Virus record (IMG/VR): IMGVR_UViG_2541047847_000004
Length of the DNA stretch: 54,394 bases
Source of the DNA: a virus
Taxonomy: Duplodnaviria; Heunggongvirae; Uroviricota; Caudoviricetes
Reading direction: 5' to 3' (one strand)
Under the pieces are notes generated by a model, which was given only the letters and a program-made list of their open reading frames with translations, searched no databases and was not told the origin of the DNA. Each line of letters starts with the position of its first letter. The stretch's first letter is position 1. The translations under genes and the position numbers were made by a program. This document shows positions 1 to 40,757 of the stretch, one piece after another.

Positions 1-1209
1 ATGTCGGTTTTTCATAACTGGCTGCTTGATATCGCAAGCGGGAATTACTTTATCTACATCAAACGCCTTTCTGCAAACGACACTGGCGCAACAGGTGGCC
101 ATCAGGTCGGACTTTATATCCCCTCAAATATCGTTGAAAAGCTTTTTCCATCTATCAATCATACTCGCGAACTGAACCCTTCAGTCTTCCTTACTGCGCA
201 TGTATCATCCCATGATTGCCCTGATACCCAAGCACGCGCAATTTATTACAACAACCGTTATTTTGGTAAGACCCGAAACGAAAAAAGAATTACGCGCTGG
301 GGGAGAGGAAGTCCATTACAGAACCCTGAAAATACAGGAGCTCTCACAATTCTTGCTTTCAGGTTAAACGAACAGAACACTGACTGTTCCGAGGTAGATA
401 TATGGGTCTGCGTCAATCCCGATGAAGAGGATATCATCGAGTCTGCTATTGGCGAAATCATACCTGGAACCCTAATTTCCGGCCCTGCCGGACAAATTTT
501 GGGCGGATTGTCTCTTCAGCAAACTCCAGTAAATCATAAATATGTTATTCCTGAAGACTGGAAGAAGCGTTTTCCTTCTGGAAACGAAATTATTCAATAT
601 GCTGCTGGCCATTATGCTAAAAACTCCAAGGATCCAGATGAGCAACTGATTGACCGTCGGCGTGTCGAGTATGATATTTTTCTACTCGTCGAGGAATTAC
701 ATGTTCTTGATATTATTAAGAAAGGATTCGATTCTGTAGATGAGTTTATTGCATTAGCCAACTCTGTCAGTAATCGACGTAAATCAAGGGCAGGTAAATC
801 ACTTGAACTTCACCTAGAGAAGCTTTTTATCGAGCACGGACTACGGCATTTCTCCACTCAGGCAGTTACTGAAGGTAATAAAAAACCAGATTTCCTGTTT
901 CCTTCAGCAGAGGCATATCATAACGCTGAATTTCCTGTAGAAAACTTACGTATGCTGGCAGTAAAGACCACCTGCAAAGATCGCTGGCGTCAGATACTGA
1001 ATGAAGCAGATAAAATCCATCAGGTACATTTATTTACGCTGCAAGAAGGTGTTTCTTCAGCACAATACCGAGAAATGAAAGATGCGGGTGTCAGACTCGT
1101 TGTACCATCAACTTTACATAAAAAATACCCAGAAGCAGTTAGAGAAGAATTAATAACGCTCGGAGCATTCATTACTGAGCTGATAGAACTTTACACTGAA
1201 CTATCATAG
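1..1209 (+). CDS. ecoRIIR: Type IIE restriction endonuclease, EcoRII-like
   Basis: 402-aa ORF starting at base 1; N-terminus MSVFHNWLL...YIKRLSANDTGATGGHQVGLYIP matches my memory of EcoRII; convergent with a Dcm-like methyltransferase. Confidence 0.75.
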   Translation: MSVFHNWLLDIASGNYFIYIKRLSANDTGATGGHQVGLYIPSNIVEKLFPSINHTRELNPSVFLTAHVSSHDCPDTQARAIYYNNRYFGKTRNEKRITRWGRGSPLQNPENTGALTILAFRLNEQNTDCSEVDIWVCVNPDEEDIIESAIGEIIPGTLISGPAGQILGGLSLQQTPVNHKYVIPEDWKKRFPSGNEIIQYAAGHYAKNSKDPDEQLIDRRRVEYDIFLLVEELHVLDIIKKGFDSVDEFIALANSVSNRRKSRAGKSLELHLEKLFIEHGLRHFSTQAVTEGNKKPDFLFPSAEAYHNAEFPVENLRMLAVKTTCKDRWRQILNEADKIHQVHLFTLQEGVSSAQYREMKDAGVRLVVPSTLHKKYPEAVREELITLGAFITELIELYTELS

Positions 1210-1214
1210 GCTGA

Positions 1215-1237
1215 CTCCCGGCTTAAAAGGCCGGGAG
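1215..1237. terminator. GC-rich hairpin between the convergent R and M genes (possible bidirectional terminator)
   Basis: ctcccggc-ttaaaa-gccgggag inverted repeat in the 34-bp gap; no clear U-run on either strand. Confidence 0.35.
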
Positions 1238-1243
1238 GTGTTC

Positions 1244-2677
1244 TCAAGGCTGCCCAGTCTTACCAGCATCAGCAGAAACAGCTTTGAGGATATAGGGTTC
1301 CAGAAGTCTGGCAACGGCTTCAAATACTGGCACCACAACGGAGTTACCGAACTGCCGATATGACTGAGTATCTGAAACCGGAATACGGAATGGTTTCCCT
1401 CCAGGTTTTTCAAACCCCATAAGGCGTGCGCACTCTCGGGGAGTCAGCCTGCGTGGTCGACGAGCCTGGTTACTCTCATTCATAAAGTCAGCCTCTCCCG
1501 TTGCCATATCCCAACCACGATCAATAAGAATTTCTGATCCGTCTTTGTGATATCTGGCAGAAAGTGTGCGTGCAATGCTTTCCTTATTCTCAGGATTGAC
1601 CAACCCAAAGCCAAAACCATTCCCCTTGGCTGCATGCTTTTTGGCGTAGTTATAAAGGTACTCCCATAGTTTTGGCGTAAGTATATATTTACTGTCGACT
1701 ACAGGCTCCAGCAATTCACCAAATGATGGGCGGTGTTCCGGATAAAAACGACTGATATCACGCAAGGTAAACCCCTTGTGAATATTCAGATCTCGTCTAA
1801 ATCCGACCAGAACAATGCGTTCACGATGCTGAGGCAAAAAATGCTTCCCATCGATAATCTTTGGATCGTTTTTTCCCATTTCTGCAGCATCGGCAACTTC
1901 GTAGCCCAGCTCGTCAAGGGTCTCCATAATGACTTTGAAAGTTTTACCCTTATCATGGCTCTTCAGATTTTTGACATTTTCCAGCACAAAAATTGCCGGT
2001 TTTTTTGCTCGTATAATACGTGCCACGTCAAAAAAAAGTGTTCCTTGTGCTTCACATTCAAAACCATGCGCACGACCAAGTGAGTTTTTCTTACTAACAC
2101 CAGCAAGGCTAAATGGCTGGCACGGGAACCCCGCAAGAAGCACATCATGATCCGGCACATGCTCATCAATATATGCATAAGCATCCGTTTCCAATACATC
2201 GGTTTTATCACTCAGCGTGACTTCCCGAATATCGAGATTGAATTTATGCACCTGTTCATCGTTAAACCAGTTGGCCTTGTATGTACGCACAGCATCTTTA
2301 TTCCATTCACTGGTAAAAACACACTGACCTCCAATGGCCTCAAAACCTTTCCGTATCCCTCCAATTCCAGCAAATAAGTCAATGAAGCGGAAAGCATATT
2401 CCGGATGGTTTGCAGGTGGTTCTGGTAGCATCTTACGCAGAAGAGACTCTTCTACTGAAGTCAACGATTTTGGTAAACACTTGCCATTAATCCAGCGGTT
2501 AATGGTTTCACGGCTCCACTCATTTTTTCCGACTTTTCTCAGTAATTCAGCCACATACTTCTGATCATAGATTTCCAGCACTTTCTCGATAAGCTTTTTA
2601 TCATTTTCCTGTCGCAGCTTTTCTTCCGCCTCGGCTTCCTTCAGCAGATGCTGTGCCAACACTTCAAATTCAGACAT
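1244..2677 (-). CDS. ecoRIIM: DNA cytosine-5 methyltransferase (Dcm / M.EcoRII-like, CCWGG)
   Basis: Motifs [15 protein letters not shown] (motif I), GFPCQPFS (PC motif IV), ENVKNL (motif VI), strong resemblance to E. coli Dcm. Start moved to internal ATG at 2677 (GGAGGA Shine-Dalgarno upstream, gives 477 aa); ORF track start is 2719. Confidence 0.85.
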
Positions 2678-2895
2678 AATTCCTCCAAGGGGTCTAATGG
2701 GTGAAACTTTATCACTCATTCAACCCAGAAGGAAATGTTTTATCTGGATATTTAAACAGTGACTACAACGTAATCTAGCACTGGTGATGCTTTGTTAGGC
2801 ATAGAGAATCATTCTATATACGACTAATGACAGAAAAACAGCAGACAAGTAGTTTGTTCATAAATTAACGCATACAACGTGCCTGCGGTTTTTGA

Positions 2896-3852
<957 letters not shown>

Positions 3853-3909
3853 GTCTTTAAGTGATAAGCATAAACCGCAGCACGATCTTGCATACGACGT
3901 GCTACGGTT

Positions 3910-4464
3910 TCATTTATCTCCGACCGGAAACTTCTTATACAGTGTCGATATACCAACATCATAGATGATCGCCACCTTCTGGCGAGGAACGCCTGATGCA
4001 ATTAATCGCCCGGCCTGCGCCCATTGTTCTGGTGTAAGTTTGGGACGACGTCCACCAATTCGTCCCTGTGCGCGAGCAGCTTCCAGTCCAGCTTTTGTTC
4101 GTTCAACAATCAGTTCTCGTTCCATTTCAGCCAGGGCACCCATCACATGAAAGAAAAAACGCCCCATCGGTGTGCTGGTATCAATAGCATCCGTCAGGCT
4201 GCGAAAATTAACGCCACGTTCGCGCAACTCCTCAACCAGAATGACCAGATGCCGCATACTACGCCCTAGCCGATCCAGCTTCCAGACAACCAGAGTGTCA
4301 CCTGCCGATAATGTCCTGAGCAGTTTTTTCAGTCCCGGCCTTTCGGACTTTGTACCGCTTATCTTGTCTTCAAAAATCAGCTCGCATCCTGCACAGTTCA
4401 GCGCATTACGTTGTAGATCTGTGTTCTGGTCATTTGTTGACACACGTACATAGCCAATAAGCAT
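3910..4464 (-). CDS. pin: Serine recombinase / DNA invertase (Pin/Gin/Hin family)
   Basis: MLIGYVRVSTNDQ... catalytic-Ser N-terminus and C-terminal HTH typical of Pin; start set to the ATG at 4464 (184 aa) rather than track start 4500. Confidence 0.9.
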   Translation of the reverse strand: MLIGYVRVSTNDQNTDLQRNALNCAGCELIFEDKISGTKSERPGLKKLLRTLSAGDTLVVWKLDRLGRSMRHLVILVEELRERGVNFRSLTDAIDTSTPMGRFFFHVMGALAEMERELIVERTKAGLEAARAQGRIGGRRPKLTPEQWAQAGRLIASGVPRQKVAIIYDVGISTLYKKFPVGDK

Positions 4465-25176: not shown

Positions 25177-25636
25177 TTACCACCCCGCCAGCCTCTTTGA
25201 ATCGGGCAATCAGGTCACCGATTTTATGTTCATACTGACCGTAACCAGCGCCCGGCAGTGAAGCCCAGATATTGCTGCAACGATCGATAGCCTGACGAAT
25301 ATCGCCGCGATCAATCATCGGTAAAGCGCCACGCTCTTTAATCTGCTGCAATGCCACAGCATCCTGGCTTTTTGGAGAGAAGTCTTTCAGCCCAAGCTGC
25401 TTGCGGTAAGCATCCCACCAGCGTGAAAGAAGTTGATAACGGCCTGCAGCTGTTGATTTGAGTTTGGGGTTTAGCGTGACAAGTTTGCGAGGGTGATCGG
25501 AGTAATCAGTGAATAGTTCACCACCGACAATAATATCATAACCGTGGTTACGTGTCGGTTGTCGCCCGTTATCCGTTCCTTCTGACCATGCCACCATATC
25601 GAGGAAAGCTTTACGCTGAGGATTAAGATTTTGCAT
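25160..25636 (-). CDS. Endolysin (lambda R-like lysozyme/transglycosylase)
   Basis: 158 aa, near-identical in pattern to lambda R (NQRKAFLDM.AWSEGTDNGRQ.TRNHGYD). Confidence 0.9.
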   Translation of the reverse strand: MQNLNPQRKAFLDMVAWSEGTDNGRQPTRNHGYDIIVGGELFTDYSDHPRKLVTLNPKLKSTAAGRYQLLSRWWDAYRKQLGLKDFSPKSQDAVALQQIKERGALPMIDRGDIRQAIDRCSNIWASLPGAGYGQYEHKIGDLIARFKEAGGVVNEVEL

Positions 25637-26027
25637 TTTTCACCCCTGTCAGTCGTTCCCAGAAGTACGTCAGTGCAACCGAACCCATCGCACCACTAAT
25701 CCCCGCTGTCGCGAGAATCATGTAAATACTGAATCCACTTTCGATGCTGATCAGGCCACCAATAACACCGGTGAATCCTGATACCACTATCTGAGCCAGA
25801 GCATTTATCCAACTCCACGTTGCTTTACTCTGCTTCACATCTATCAGGTAGCGGACCAGACCGCCCCAACCTGCGATGATCAGCAAAACGAGCCAGAACG
25901 CTCCAGCAAGATTCTCTTTTTCGTGCATATGAATAGCCGCAGTTTCGCCTCCGACAGAAAATCGGAGCGTGAAATGATATGTTGATTTATTATTAATTCG
26001 AAAATTACATTCTAATTCATCAGGCAT
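25623..26027 (-). CDS. Holin
   Basis: Three hydrophobic helices; probable true start at internal ATG 25928 (MHEKEN...). Confidence 0.65.
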   Translation of the reverse strand: MPDELECNFRINNKSTYHFTLRFSVGGETAAIHMHEKENLAGAFWLVLLIIAGWGGLVRYLIDVKQSKATWSWINALAQIVVSGFTGVIGGLISIESGFSIYMILATAGISGAMGSVALTYFWERLTGVKNAKS

Positions 26028-26045
26028 TGATGATTTTATAATAAT

Positions 26046-26068
26046 AAAGGCCGTTCGTTACGGCCTTT
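26046..26068. terminator. Hairpin terminator between acidic ORF and holin (tR'-like)
   Basis: aaaggccg-ttcgtta-cggccttt followed by A/T-rich runs on both strands. Confidence 0.45.
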
Positions 26069-26079
26069 ATTATTGATAT

Positions 26080-26415
26080 TTATTTTACATCCCAAGGTAG
26101 TTCCTCAAGAGAGAAGACTAATTCATTATCAATAATTTCGTATTCTGCATAACCTTCAACCTCTCCTGAGAAGTTATTGTCAACGCATCCTTCATAATAG
26201 CTATATGGTGCTATAAAGTGAAACCCATATTCATCTATCTCTGTGATTTCAAAATTGTAGTAATCGTAAGAATATCGAATATCATCATCAGAAATAGAAC
26301 TAAGTACATAGTTATTAAATTTATCGGAATGCTTAACGATAAGCTCTGACAACGCGTCAAGATTCTCTGGAGAGATATTTCCTAACGGTAATCTGTACTC
26401 AACGGCATTAATCAT
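26080..26415 (-). CDS. Strongly acidic, Tyr-rich hypothetical protein (moron at the Q-holin junction)
   Basis: 111 aa with ~24 Asp/Glu vs ~5 Lys/Arg; local AT-rich composition; own hairpin downstream. Confidence 0.5.
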   Translation of the reverse strand: MINAVEYRLPLGNISPENLDALSELIVKHSDKFNNYVLSSISDDDIRYSYDYYNFEITEIDEYGFHFIAPYSYYEGCVDNNFSGEVEGYAEYEIIDNELVFSLEELPWDVK

Positions 26416-26600
26416 ACAACCTCCTTTTTAACTGATATGGGGTTATATAATGTGTTTCAGTACAAGTAAATAAAAACCCGCTCAACAGCGGGTTCGTGAA
26501 AATTATCAACGGCAGACATACAAAGCCCATCGTTGAGAAAATCTTATCCATATTTTTTGAAAAATGCAAGCTTCATGTCGCCATCTTCGGCGAAAATCAC

Positions 26601-27359
26601 TTATCTCGTCACCTTTCTCAATTGTGTTTCAGCATATGCTTCTTCCTGCCAGCACTTTGTTACCAGTTTATCAATGACGTCTGCATATCCTTTGTACCAC
26701 TGATAATCAGTCAGGTCTGGAACCAGCTTCTGGACATGACGTCGTGCCAGTGTAGTTGGTAAACGGCTAAACCGGTTTCCATTGCAACGCCCACAAATCT
26801 TATAAACAGGCGTGCCATGAAGCCGGGTCCTTTTTTCATCCAGGACAATACCTTTACCCTTACACCCTCTGCACGCTGTGCTGACTTCTCCCTTACCATG
26901 ACAATGCTGGCATAGTTCCTTCACCCACTCTTCCTTGATAACAGATTCCCCGCTTCTGGAGTGTTTCACCACCTCGCGCAATACATTATGAAATCCAGTA
27001 CCAGCACAATGCTCACAGCGAGCCTTACTTGCCGCAGACCTGGAATAATCAGCAAAGGCAAAATTCACAAGGTAAGGAATGATCTGTAGCCGGGTTTCTT
27101 CACTCAATTTATTCAATGTCGGGTTATCCAGTGCCATCGCGTAATTGAGCAGACCTTCAATCGCAAACTGAGGATCCTGAACACCAACTTTTGCCAGGAA
27201 TAAGGCAAACCCAAGCGGTGCTTTCGACTGCACCATCCCCTGCGCAGCCATCACATCCGTAATCGTTAAACCACCAGAGCCTGTCGCCGGTGCGTCATCG
27301 CTCAGTTTTGGAGATTTCGGGGAGTAATATTTCGGTAAGGCTTCAAGGTTCATGCTCAT
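26601..27359 (-). CDS. Q: Late-gene antiterminator Q
   Basis: 252 aa with Cys-x2-Cys zinc-binding pairs, located just upstream of the lysis cassette. Confidence 0.75.
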   Translation of the reverse strand: MSMNLEALPKYYSPKSPKLSDDAPATGSGGLTITDVMAAQGMVQSKAPLGFALFLAKVGVQDPQFAIEGLLNYAMALDNPTLNKLSEETRLQIIPYLVNFAFADYSRSAASKARCEHCAGTGFHNVLREVVKHSRSGESVIKEEWVKELCQHCHGKGEVSTACRGCKGKGIVLDEKRTRLHGTPVYKICGRCNGNRFSRLPTTLARRHVQKLVPDLTDYQWYKGYADVIDKLVTKCWQEEAYAETQLRKVTR

Positions 27360-37516: not shown

Positions 37517-37762
37517 ATGTTGCTCCCGTGTGCAGACGGGATAATGGAGAAACGTATGCTGAACCTCGATTGTGTTCCTATCTCAACTTATTGCAAAGAA
37601 ACTGGCGAAACTCCTGAAGCAATAAACAAACGTGTACAGCGCGGTGTTTGGCGTGAAGGTGTTCAGGTTTTAAAGGTTGAAGGCGTTAAGGAGAGGTGGA
37701 TTGATCTTAGTGAGGTTGCAAAATGGGCCAGACAAAACTGCTCAAACTACCGCGCGGCGTAA
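37517..37762 (+). CDS. xis: Excisionase-like protein
   Basis: Small basic ORF directly upstream of and overlapping int; alternative start at 37556 (GGAG + 6 nt). Confidence 0.5.
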   Translation: MLLPCADGIMEKRMLNLDCVPISTYCKETGETPEAINKRVQRGVWREGVQVLKVEGVKERWIDLSEVAKWARQNCSNYRAA

Positions 37763-38895
37763 CAATCAGGAAACACCGCCAGGGAGAAACGATCAATATA
37801 ACTTTCACCTACAAAGGAGTTAGATGTCGTGAGCCGCTTTCCAATCTGGAAGTAACACCAAAGAACATTAAATACGCCGAGCGTACACTCGGCGAAATCC
37901 ATAATAAGATCGAAAGGGGAACATTCATTTATGCAGAATATTTTCCCCGTTCTGCTCGTTTGAAAATTTTTGGTAATGCTGCTGCAGGCAAAACGGTAAA
38001 GGTGTACCTGGACGAATATCTTGAAATCTGCGAAACAAGAAAACTTTCACCCTCTACGATTGGTGGCTATAAAAAATGCCGTAGTGCGTTAGCCTCACTT
38101 CACATTTGCCCTGCAAGTGAATTAACACCAGCAACCCTGAAAGCGTGGATTCAAAGCCAGAAAACAACCTTAAAAACCATTCGCAACCAGTTATCTTTCC
38201 TACGGTCAGCACTTGATGAAGCCGTGACCGATGGGGTACTTCAAATTAACCCCGTATCGTTAGTAACAGCTTCGCGCTACCAAAGTGATAAGTCAGAAGC
38301 AGAAAGCAGCTATGTGGTTGATCCGCTATCACCAGCAGAAGTTGATGCATTACTAGCAGCAGCCGGAAACAAACAATGGGAAAATCTGTTCCGGTTCGCC
38401 ATACATACAGGCCTGCGTAGTTCTGAATTATGTGCCCTACGATGGCATGATATCGACTTTGTTGGAAAAACAGCCCATGTTCAGAGCGCAAGTGTTGTCG
38501 GAGTTATCAAAGGAACAAAGACAAAAGCCGGTACCCGTAAAGTTGAACTGACTGAAGAAGCAATGTTGGCGTTGATAAACCAGAAGCCATTTACATTCAT
38601 GAAGGATGCTACTGTCTTTGAAGATCCAAAGACCAATAAACCCTGGGCAAGTGCTGATGCAATTAGGAAAAAAGCATGGGTGCCAACATTGCGAAAAGCA
38701 GGTATTCGTTACAGAAACCCATATCAAACCAGGCATACATTCGCCACCAGCCATATCAGCCGGGGAGCAAACCTGTTTTGGCTTGCGGCTCAAATGGGCC
38801 ATAAAGGGCCTGAAATGTTATTCAGGCACTATGGACAATACTTGAAAGAGTATGATGGGAGGGCAAGTATCAAGGATAAAAAGGCTTTATTTTAA
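37723..38895 (+). CDS. int: Tyrosine integrase (prophage)
   Basis: 390 aa; C-terminal R...H..R...Y catalytic pattern (HTFATSHISRGANLF...LGHKGPEMLFRHYGQY). Confidence 0.85.
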   Translation: MGQTKLLKLPRGVTIRKHRQGETINITFTYKGVRCREPLSNLEVTPKNIKYAERTLGEIHNKIERGTFIYAEYFPRSARLKIFGNAAAGKTVKVYLDEYLEICETRKLSPSTIGGYKKCRSALASLHICPASELTPATLKAWIQSQKTTLKTIRNQLSFLRSALDEAVTDGVLQINPVSLVTASRYQSDKSEAESSYVVDPLSPAEVDALLAAAGNKQWENLFRFAIHTGLRSSELCALRWHDIDFVGKTAHVQSASVVGVIKGTKTKAGTRKVELTEEAMLALINQKPFTFMKDATVFEDPKTNKPWASADAIRKKAWVPTLRKAGIRYRNPYQTRHTFATSHISRGANLFWLAAQMGHKGPEMLFRHYGQYLKEYDGRASIKDKKALF

Positions 38896-39845: not shown

Positions 39846-40757
39846 TCATCTCCTGGGAACCAGCGACCATTGTAGTAAAGTACCCGGTATGTACTCAGCT
39901 AGCTTCTCACATCGAGGACTACTGTCATTAGAATTATAGCTATAACGAGCCCTTCCTGTTAGTATCAGAAGTGTCTCATTATCCTCACAACCTGCCCCAA
40001 TAGGTCTCTTGATATCTTCAGAGCCATTTCCCCGTCCGGAACCAACAAAGCGGGATTCCCCTACTAACATAGCTCTTTCCACAGAAGATACTTCGTTTTG
40101 AATGCTATGACCATCACCATTAGGCACGAAACTTCTATAAATCCCCAATCCAAGGTCACAAACGATAAAAACGACTTTATTTTCATCACGATTGAACCAA
40201 GCGCACTGCCACCATCGTTTACCTTTGAGAAGCTGAATATCTGACTCGAACCCCTCATCTTCATACGCATGATGAGAAACATTGAGCAAAGCTTCACTAA
40301 TCGCTGTCAGCAGTAAGCCTAACTGTTCATTATTAAGCAGAGCACTTTTCTGCAGCATGAGTACTGTTTCAACAATATGCTCGTAAGGTTCGACAGCTGA
40401 CTGAAAGTATCGTTCCTCCCTCGTAAGTGCATTCAGTTTCTCTTCTGTGCCAGCAAGCAAAGCACGAGCAAGTCCAGTACCAACGATCCATCTATGCCCA
40501 GATGGGTTATCATCCTTTTTAGGCCATTTAAAACGTATAAAATTAGGGTCCCGGGTTAAAAATTGAGCTCTATTTACTATGGCAAAGAACAGTACCGATG
40601 CCGCAGCTGAGGCAAATTTTACCTTGGACAAATCAACTATAACTCGACCTTTATTTTTTACTCCAATCGATTCAATCGAGTTGATGAAGTTCAATGTCCC
40701 AGCCCTAGAATCATCTGAGTAAATGCAAAATTTGCTTGGGGGTACCAGTATGGTCAT
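39846..40757 (-). CDS. GHKL-superfamily ATPase (histidine-kinase-like ATP-binding domain) with unassigned N-terminal region
   Basis: N-box SEALLNVSHHAY, G1 box VCDLGLGI, G2 box GSGRGNG in order in the C-terminal half; no HisKA/dimerisation domain or receiver visible. Confidence 0.55.
   Translation of the reverse strand: MTILVPPSKFCIYSDDSRAGTLNFINSIESIGVKNKGRVIVDLSKVKFASAAASVLFFAIVNRAQFLTRDPNFIRFKWPKKDDNPSGHRWIVGTGLARALLAGTEEKLNALTREERYFQSAVEPYEHIVETVLMLQKSALLNNEQLGLLLTAISEALLNVSHHAYEDEGFESDIQLLKGKRWWQCAWFNRDENKVVFIVCDLGLGIYRSFVPNGDGHSIQNEVSSVERAMLVGESRFVGSGRGNGSEDIKRPIGAGCEDNETLLILTGRARYSYNSNDSSPRCEKLAEYIPGTLLQWSLVPRR

Follow-up and report, generated by a model that had tools for sequence, protein, structure and literature searches.

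The interval between the late antiterminator gene Q and the holin gene holds the most consequential cargo of lambdoid phages, including Shiga toxin, and is massively expressed on induction. The cargo described from this slot (stx1 and stx2; orf47 plus a DNA methylase gene in SfV; orf47-49 in SfIV) shares one insertion point, after the terminator tR' and before the holin gene, together with a low guanine plus cytosine (GC) content, a distal terminator and a dependence on read-through by Q. An earlier description classed the Q-to-lysis interval of SfIV (orf47-49) as a low-GC moron (PMC3851460), and cargo is known to accumulate in this hotspot. Here we describe a gene for a highly acidic protein of 111 amino acids that occupies this slot in the IMG/VR virus record IMGVR_UViG_2541047847_000004, a 54,394-nucleotide DNA of a virus of the Caudoviricetes (hereafter the window, meaning this whole stretch). 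It agrees with the described cargo in all the properties just listed, and differs from it in being a single small gene for an unrelated cytoplasmic protein with no signal peptide and no known activity.

The leader, the open reading frame (ORF) and a terminator of its own make up a cassette, a moron that is complete in itself, carries one gene and stands first in the late operon of an SfV/e14-like E. coli prophage (Table 1). Taken jointly, this anatomy and the expression layout set out below are held with high confidence. As to function, we tentatively favour a role of the protein as a stoichiometric inhibitor, its acidic surface binding a basic protein that itself binds or cleaves nucleic acid.

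The limits of the cassette were taken from the ends of the flanking homology. Similarity on the Q side (end of Q, PR' and tR') to SfV, mEp460 and Stx2c phages stops at ~26472, the Q-side match in ~950 E. coli genomes ends at 26461-26475, and the homology of the lysis module in ~970 other genomes stops on the holin side at ~25960; the cargo is therefore a unit of ~0.5 kb. At this one site the cassette is present in 131 E. coli genomes (701-bp region at >= 99% identity, 131 of 5426 complete E. coli genomes), while ~950 genomes share only the Q/tR' side and ~970 only the holin side. Behind the same Q/tR' module SfV and vB_EcoM-720R4 carry orf47 and a DNA methylase gene followed by a terminator, and phiSTEC1575-Stx2k carries several small ORFs, three transfer RNAs (tRNAs) and stx2k (the Q/PR'/tR' module is ~90% identical in phiSTEC1575-Stx2k and SfV). 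In O157:H7 and ST131 prophages the same lysis cassette stands directly behind a lambda-type Q and is cargo-free. The window copy shows three of the properties of a moron, namely patchy presence, a deviant GC content (0.34 vs. 0.49; 33.6% in the acidic ORF and 49.4% in the window) and a downstream terminator of its own, and a GC content below that of the surroundings was also found at other phage loci of the family. The order of PR', tR', acidic gene and holin gene is that of the Stx-type slot.

The match of PR' to the consensus was too weak to be listed by the scanner, and the promoter was assigned from homology and position; its layout is the same as that of lambda PR' (TTGACT-17-TAAATT). The block CTCAACGATGGG at the transcript start contains AACGAT, which we take to be the sigma70-dependent pause element where Q engages RNA polymerase, as in lambda, and is also kept in phages whose Q is merely 35% identical (L048, L068). 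The window itself has a Q of the PF03589 family, yet lambda's exact 12-mer in the late promoter region (26525-26568). The hairpin between Q and the acidic gene is tR'; it lies ~40 nt past the transcript start and ends a PR' leader of ~65 nt, and the homologous site in SfV carries the annotation of a rho-independent terminator. Because the acidic gene is downstream of tR', starting 53 nt beyond it, PR' transcripts reach the gene only with Q, that is, under full late transcription. Transcription of the window copy would thus depend mainly on polymerase that started at PR' and, with the help of Q, passed tR'; the acidic protein would be the first late product and probably an abundant one. The strong terminator of the cassette, too, would be passed only by polymerase modified by Q, which would continue into the lysis genes.

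This layout departs in part from a first-pass annotation of the window, which had placed the gene within the PR'-tR' interval and had proposed expression from the late promoter without full late transcription. Neither statement is supported, since PR' and the ATG at 26415 are separated by a terminator (26495..26468), a second hairpin absent from that annotation, and Q antitermination is needed to pass it. The comparison with the stx slot was well founded, as the same Q/PR'/tR' module precedes stx2k in phiSTEC1575-Stx2k and the acidic gene, like stx, is downstream of tR'. We also agree with the description of an AT-rich insert (GC 33.6%) between the Q gene and a hairpin ahead of the holin gene, and with the moron reading, the gene being low in GC, patchily present and placed as cargo between Q and the lysis cassette.

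Table 1. Features of the Q-to-holin interval of the window. Coordinates are positions in the window.
Feature	Coordinates	Strand	Evidence and remarks
Holin gene, first of the lysis cassette	25623..25928	-	PF16083, phrog_785; RefSeq start 25928
Low-GC cargo cassette, ~0.5 kb, between Q/tR' module and lysis module	25961..26472	-	Ends of flanking homology; GC 0.32-0.37 throughout
Cassette's own terminator, perfect 15/16-bp hairpin flanked by A/T runs (bidirectional)	26039..26075	.	Between acidic gene and holin gene
Gene of the acidic 111-amino-acid protein	26080..26415	-	RefSeq WP_000606308.1; phrog_13663
Shine-Dalgarno sequence AAGGAGG	26420..26426	-	4 nt before ATG; GGAGGTT kept in Salmonella and Citrobacter copies
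Candidate weak own promoter TTTACT-17-TATAAC	26442..26470	-	Kept as TTTAC[AT]-N17-TATAAC in Salmonella and Citrobacter copies; status uncertain
tR'-like intrinsic terminator (9-bp stem, 5 GC pairs, T-run)	26468..26495	-	Scanner match and RNA fold
CTCAACGATGGG, PR' transcript start region (~26533)	26525..26536	-	12/12 identical to lambda, same distance from the -10 hexamer
Late promoter PR' (-35 TTGCAT, 17-nt spacer, -10 TAAGAT)	26540..26568	-	Homology and position
Late antiterminator Q gene	26601..27359	-	PF03589 E 3.8e-54; phrog_127 E 5e-109; RefSeq start 27353; antitermination protein in the GE3 annotation

A consensus scan found no promoter of its own between tR' and the ATG of the window copy. 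The candidate weak promoter listed in Table 1 is not called by the scanner because the final base of its -10 hexamer is C; it may add some expression in the lysogen. The hairpin following the stop codon has a predicted folding energy of -20.2 kcal/mol (z -7.6). In the leader of the window clade (26413-26449) ATATAACC pairs with GGTTGTAT(G) and covers the start codon with a pairing probability of ~1.0. A leader hairpin hiding the Shine-Dalgarno sequence and the AUG was seen in the folds of seven of seven loci, but this candidate element was rejected, the pairing of the Shine-Dalgarno sequence being 0.56 vs. 0.57 in shuffled sequences (29 distinct leaders). The search of the cassette for known RNA elements in Rfam gave just sub-threshold noise.

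Downstream of the acidic gene follow the genes of a LydA-type holin, a GH24 endolysin and Rz. The mechanical holin ORF reaches 26027, 33 codons upstream of the RefSeq start (25929-26027) and into the AT-rich tail of the cassette; this extension is probably not translated, because homology to other, cargo-free prophages stops at ~25960.

The acidic ORF is a real, selected gene, with a strong Shine-Dalgarno sequence, a low ratio of nonsynonymous to synonymous substitution rates (dN/dS) and a fold predicted by AlphaFold2. The window protein is 72% identical to its Salmonella and 69% to its Citrobacter orthologue, both of equal length and aligned gap-free (dN 0.19-0.21 with saturated dS), and dN/dS is 0.10-0.28 in other pairs of the family. 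With 24 Asp/Glu and 5 Lys/Arg residues the net charge is -19 and the isoelectric point (pI) 4.05. Among the 71 gene-like ORFs of the window it ranks first both in acidity (-0.171 per residue; mean +0.014, standard deviation 0.055, i.e., 3.4 standard deviations off) and in Tyr share (10.8%; mean 3.1%, standard deviation 1.7%). The protein has no membrane segment and is cytoplasmic, without a signal peptide. At least 1000 public contigs encode exactly this sequence, each time under the name "hypothetical protein," and no literature on the protein was found by accession, PHROG identifier or topic.

The protein belongs to phrog_13663, a family with no annotated function, which it matches over its full length (positions 1-111 of 111, E 9.4e-54) and which all nine of the distant relatives tested match as well; Pfam, NCBIfam and PADLOC gave no match. 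A word-indexed search returned just five close relatives, and HMMER, run exhaustively against 1.84 billion representatives, returned 26 sequences at E <= 0.001, nearly all of ~110 amino acids. The named members come from Escherichia, Shigella, Salmonella, Citrobacter, Enterobacter, Franconibacter, Atlantibacter, Erwinia and Duffyella. Acidity is a family-wide trait, with net charges of -9 to -20 in 25 of 25 family representatives. The richness in Tyr is confined to the window clade; several aromatic positions are nonetheless conserved, and the invariant or near-invariant residues are F33, D45, R47, Y48, F55, G76, C77, Y92, E104, E105, and W108. A link to plasmid leading regions, which would have favoured an anti-restriction role, was considered and dropped, the sole plasmid match being a 37.7-kb circular copy of the phage itself. 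This replicon, "plasmid unnamed3" of E. coli CX04 (NZ_CP081716.1, L081; 37,667 bp, circular), is a complete phage genome that includes the acidic gene, and copies of the gene are also present in the chromosome of the CX04 strain series; the phage in CX04 apparently excises and circularises, and is probably active.

For the predicted structure AlphaFold2 was run on a 25-sequence alignment (predicted local distance difference test, pLDDT, 86.7; predicted template modelling score, pTM, 0.77), and this model supersedes an earlier one from four sequences (pLDDT 74). The protein is predicted to be compactly folded and of the alpha+beta type, in the order b1-a1-a2-b2..b6, with a strand at residues 3-10, helices at 19-28 and 30-41, short strands at 48-50 and 56-60, a long hairpin at 64-75/80-95 and a strand at 98-105; the low-confidence C-terminal tail holds the invariant Trp. 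Conserved acidic columns alternate along b3 (56), b5 (85/87/91/93) and b6 (102/104/105), and would therefore, in this one-dimensional reading, share one face of the sheet. Foldseek found no match at E < 0.001, and the likeness to NTF2-like, VirB8-like and cystatin-like alpha+beta folds is a resemblance only, with scores below homology support and 4-10% identity; the predicted fold appears to be without close relatives. As described in the first-pass annotation, the protein has 111 residues and a net charge near -19, with the correction that 12 and not 11 of them are Tyr. That annotation had set a disordered, non-conserved peptide against its own reading, and what was found instead is a confidently predicted fold (pLDDT 86.7), conservation and an acidity kept throughout the family.

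An alternative reading is a binder or sponge of small molecules, in which the curved sheet and the helices would form an NTF2-like cup and the invariant R47, Y48, C77, D79, E105 and W108 would bind a metabolite or a nucleotide immune signal. The invariant Cys/Arg/Asp/Glu/Trp cluster would suit such ligand binding just as well as protein binding, and is returned to below; we nevertheless regard a ligand-binding role as distinctly improbable.

The genomic context of the family was analysed at ~45 loci, the neighbours being classified by BLAST against a panel annotated from Pfam matches. In ~35 phage and prophage loci, whose homologues are 26-72% identical, the gene stands between Q and the holin gene. 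This position is kept behind at least four types of Q (PF03589, a 35%-identical PF03589-like type, a 192-amino-acid DUF1133/PF06530 type and a 204-amino-acid type) and ahead of at least three types of holin (holin_3_3, several holin_8 variants and holin_2). There was no conserved partner gene in any context, the sole constant neighbours being the Q and holin modules. Behind unrelated Q types, PF03589 and DUF1133/PF06530, the hairpins of tR' (AACCCGC-loop-GCGGGTTTTT) are near-identical (window 26474-26495; L005, L010, L015, L024, and others), and may be a short conserved module-boundary sequence that mediates the exchange of cargo by recombination.

Constant adjacency to the lysis cassette in phages could be taken to mean that the protein is an accessory of lysis or late morphogenesis, e.g., a regulator of the holin. 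Yet the adjacent holins come from three or more unrelated families, O157 and ST131 prophages lack the acidic gene and have the identical lysis cassette in working order, a terminator stands between the acidic gene and the holin gene, the protein is free of membrane segments, and the chromosomal orphans described below are far from any lysis gene. We consider such a role highly improbable, and both this role and ligand binding are less likely than roles in anti-defence or in the service of the host.

Each phage-borne copy inspected has its own hairpin and T-run 3' of the gene. In sister clades the gene is accompanied from phage to phage by ~90 nt of non-coding DNA on its upstream side (alignment A5, with loci L015, L047, L048, L051, L024, L059, L021, L066, L067, and L022), and this block, situated after tR', holds an invariant TTG.CA-N15/16-TA...T in four different upstream (Q) contexts, with a scanner match in L048. 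Preceded by TTTTTTCATTTCTGA and an A-run, the motif has the form of a sigma70-type promoter with an unusually short spacer. That it might be a general element of the phage backbone was rejected, since a pattern scan of IMG/VR found it only beside the family gene, plus three chance AT-rich matches. Judged by these motifs, the family has the layout of a classical promoter-gene-terminator moron. It resembles the Hendrix-type morons of HK97- and lambda-type phages in its patchy presence, deviant composition and own terminator and, in the sister clades, in an own sigma70-type promoter. The window clade has a shortened leader without a canonical promoter, and the window copy, unlike those morons, lacks a convincing promoter of its own and probably relies on PR' and Q.

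Some members of the family are chromosomal. One clade (L028-L035) lies directly downstream of the lipid-transport operon ydbH-ynbE-ydbL, and co-oriented with it, in Atlantibacter, Franconibacter and one Citrobacter (freundii M-21), and further orphans were found near sbcB and near dsbB. The members of the ydbH-associated clade have a host-like GC content and a dN/dS of 0.05-0.12, and carry an extra conserved Cys pair (FEPCCDRN); since these orphans are under strong purifying selection, the protein is useful outside the lytic cycle too. The ORFs of 779-879 amino acids upstream of the chromosomal copies were considered as toxin partners of an immunity protein and rejected, since they are YdbH, a lipid-transport protein, with YnbE and YdbL alongside.

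These copies are one argument for a benefit to the host or lysogen (lysogenic conversion), under which the gene, with its own promoter and with terminators on both sides, would neutralise a basic nuclease toxin in the manner of an orphan immunity protein, or a protein of a superinfecting phage. The promoter-gene-terminator architecture of the sister clades agrees with this, and a strong terminator that shields the holin gene is sensible if the acidic gene is transcribed while the lysis genes are silent. The small, acidic, single-domain profile resembles that of nuclease immunity proteins. However, the missing canonical promoter of the window clade counts against constitutive expression of the window copy, a toxin gene was never adjacent at the collected loci, no Pfam Imm family was matched, and searches of the Protein Data Bank (PDB) gave no structural match to immunity proteins of colicins or of contact-dependent inhibition (CDI) systems. 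On balance we regard lysogenic conversion as unlikely.

A classical DNA mimic, as put forward in the first-pass annotation, whose acidic surface imitates the DNA backbone and blocks a host enzyme of restriction or another DNA-binding defence, would be a sub-case of the inhibitor mechanism that we favour. T7 Ocr, ArdA, T4 Arn, Ugi and AcrIIA4 are likewise small, folded, phage-borne products of single genes with a very low pI, and the acidic protein, at -0.17 charges per residue and pI 4.05, with a predicted fold (pLDDT 86.7) and an acidity kept family-wide, agrees with this profile; its charge density falls in the range of known DNA mimics. Orphan DNA methylases share its slot (SfV, 720R4, L022, L046), sometimes adjoining the family gene, which is a weak guilt-by-association link to restriction evasion. 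An SfV-like N6/N4 DNA methylase and a small ORF like SfV orf47 were found in the slot at four loci of the family (L022, L064, L065, L046), with the family gene before the methylase in three of them and after it in one. Against a DNA mimic, the protein has no sequence or fold similarity to the proteins named above or to any other solved mimic, and its gene is behind a late terminator. Characterised DNA mimics are typically made early, whereas the product of the window clade would be made after incoming DNA needs protection, and on induction the prophage DNA is already host-modified. Selected chromosomal orphans, too, are unexpected for a counter-defence gene that serves only the phage. A classical mimic is in our view an improbable form of the inhibitor, about on a par with lysogenic conversion.

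In the broader inhibitor mechanism, which is the least certain part of our account, the acidic protein would act alone, by tight stoichiometric binding. The binding surface would be formed by the acidic face of the beta-sheet and the conserved cluster D45-x-R47-Y48 / G76-C77-x-D79 / E104-E105-x-x-W108. The target would be a basic protein that binds or cleaves nucleic acid, blocked by a decoy or inhibitor in the way of DNA mimics and nuclease immunity proteins; candidates are a defence nuclease of the host, an incoming toxin or a protein of a rival phage.

Several observations weigh against inhibition of a nucleic-acid-binding protein. Neither sequence nor fold homology was found to families of mimic and anti-defence proteins whose structures are solved (Ocr, ArdA, Ugi, Arn, Acr, Tad, Acb, and others) or, in the PDB searches, to colicin-immunity structures. 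The late timing is wrong for shielding incoming DNA from restriction, and the chromosomal copies argue for a function that does not depend on the lytic cycle. As recombination readily brings genes into this permissive hotspot, position may say little about function. The invariant cluster on a weakly NTF2-like fold would fit ligand binding equally well. The gene was not found in plasmid leading regions, and 50,697 records of cultured phages gave no match to either of two family members used as tblastn queries.

A more specific form of the inhibitor mechanism can also be conceived. In it, phrog_13663 would be a new family of nucleic-acid-mimic inhibitors with a fold of its own, made as the first late product and disarming a host system that is triggered late (e.g., a nuclease or an abortive-infection sensor responding to concatemeric DNA, packaging or structural proteins), and some enterobacteria would have domesticated it. 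We offer this as a speculation that we rate somewhat below the classical mimic in probability.

Outside the Q-to-holin interval, and by the coordinate-identical GE3 annotation, positions ~1-4300 of the window, beyond the end with tail fibre and invertase, contain umuDC-like polymerase V genes, a gene of the dinI family and a HipA-family kinase with a DUF3037 partner, which may be additional cargo with an accessory or defence role. The window has an intact prophage integrase (37723-38895, + strand, 390 amino acids, with Arm-binding and Phage_integrase domains); in the near-identical GE3 prophage there is an IS66 insertion, and the integrase has an internal stop. An ORF of 303 amino acids with a HATPase_c_2 domain lies just outside the integrase gene (39846-40757, - strand).

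The Q-to-lysis hotspot and this kind of moron were already known, whereas the strict conservation of position and a predicted fold without close relatives are unusual. Members are common in E. coli, Shigella, Salmonella, Citrobacter and Enterobacter, and neither sequence nor fold links the family to a known relative. Its acidic protein is a well-defined and cheaply testable candidate for a new inhibitor, which may act in anti-defence, immunity or exclusion.
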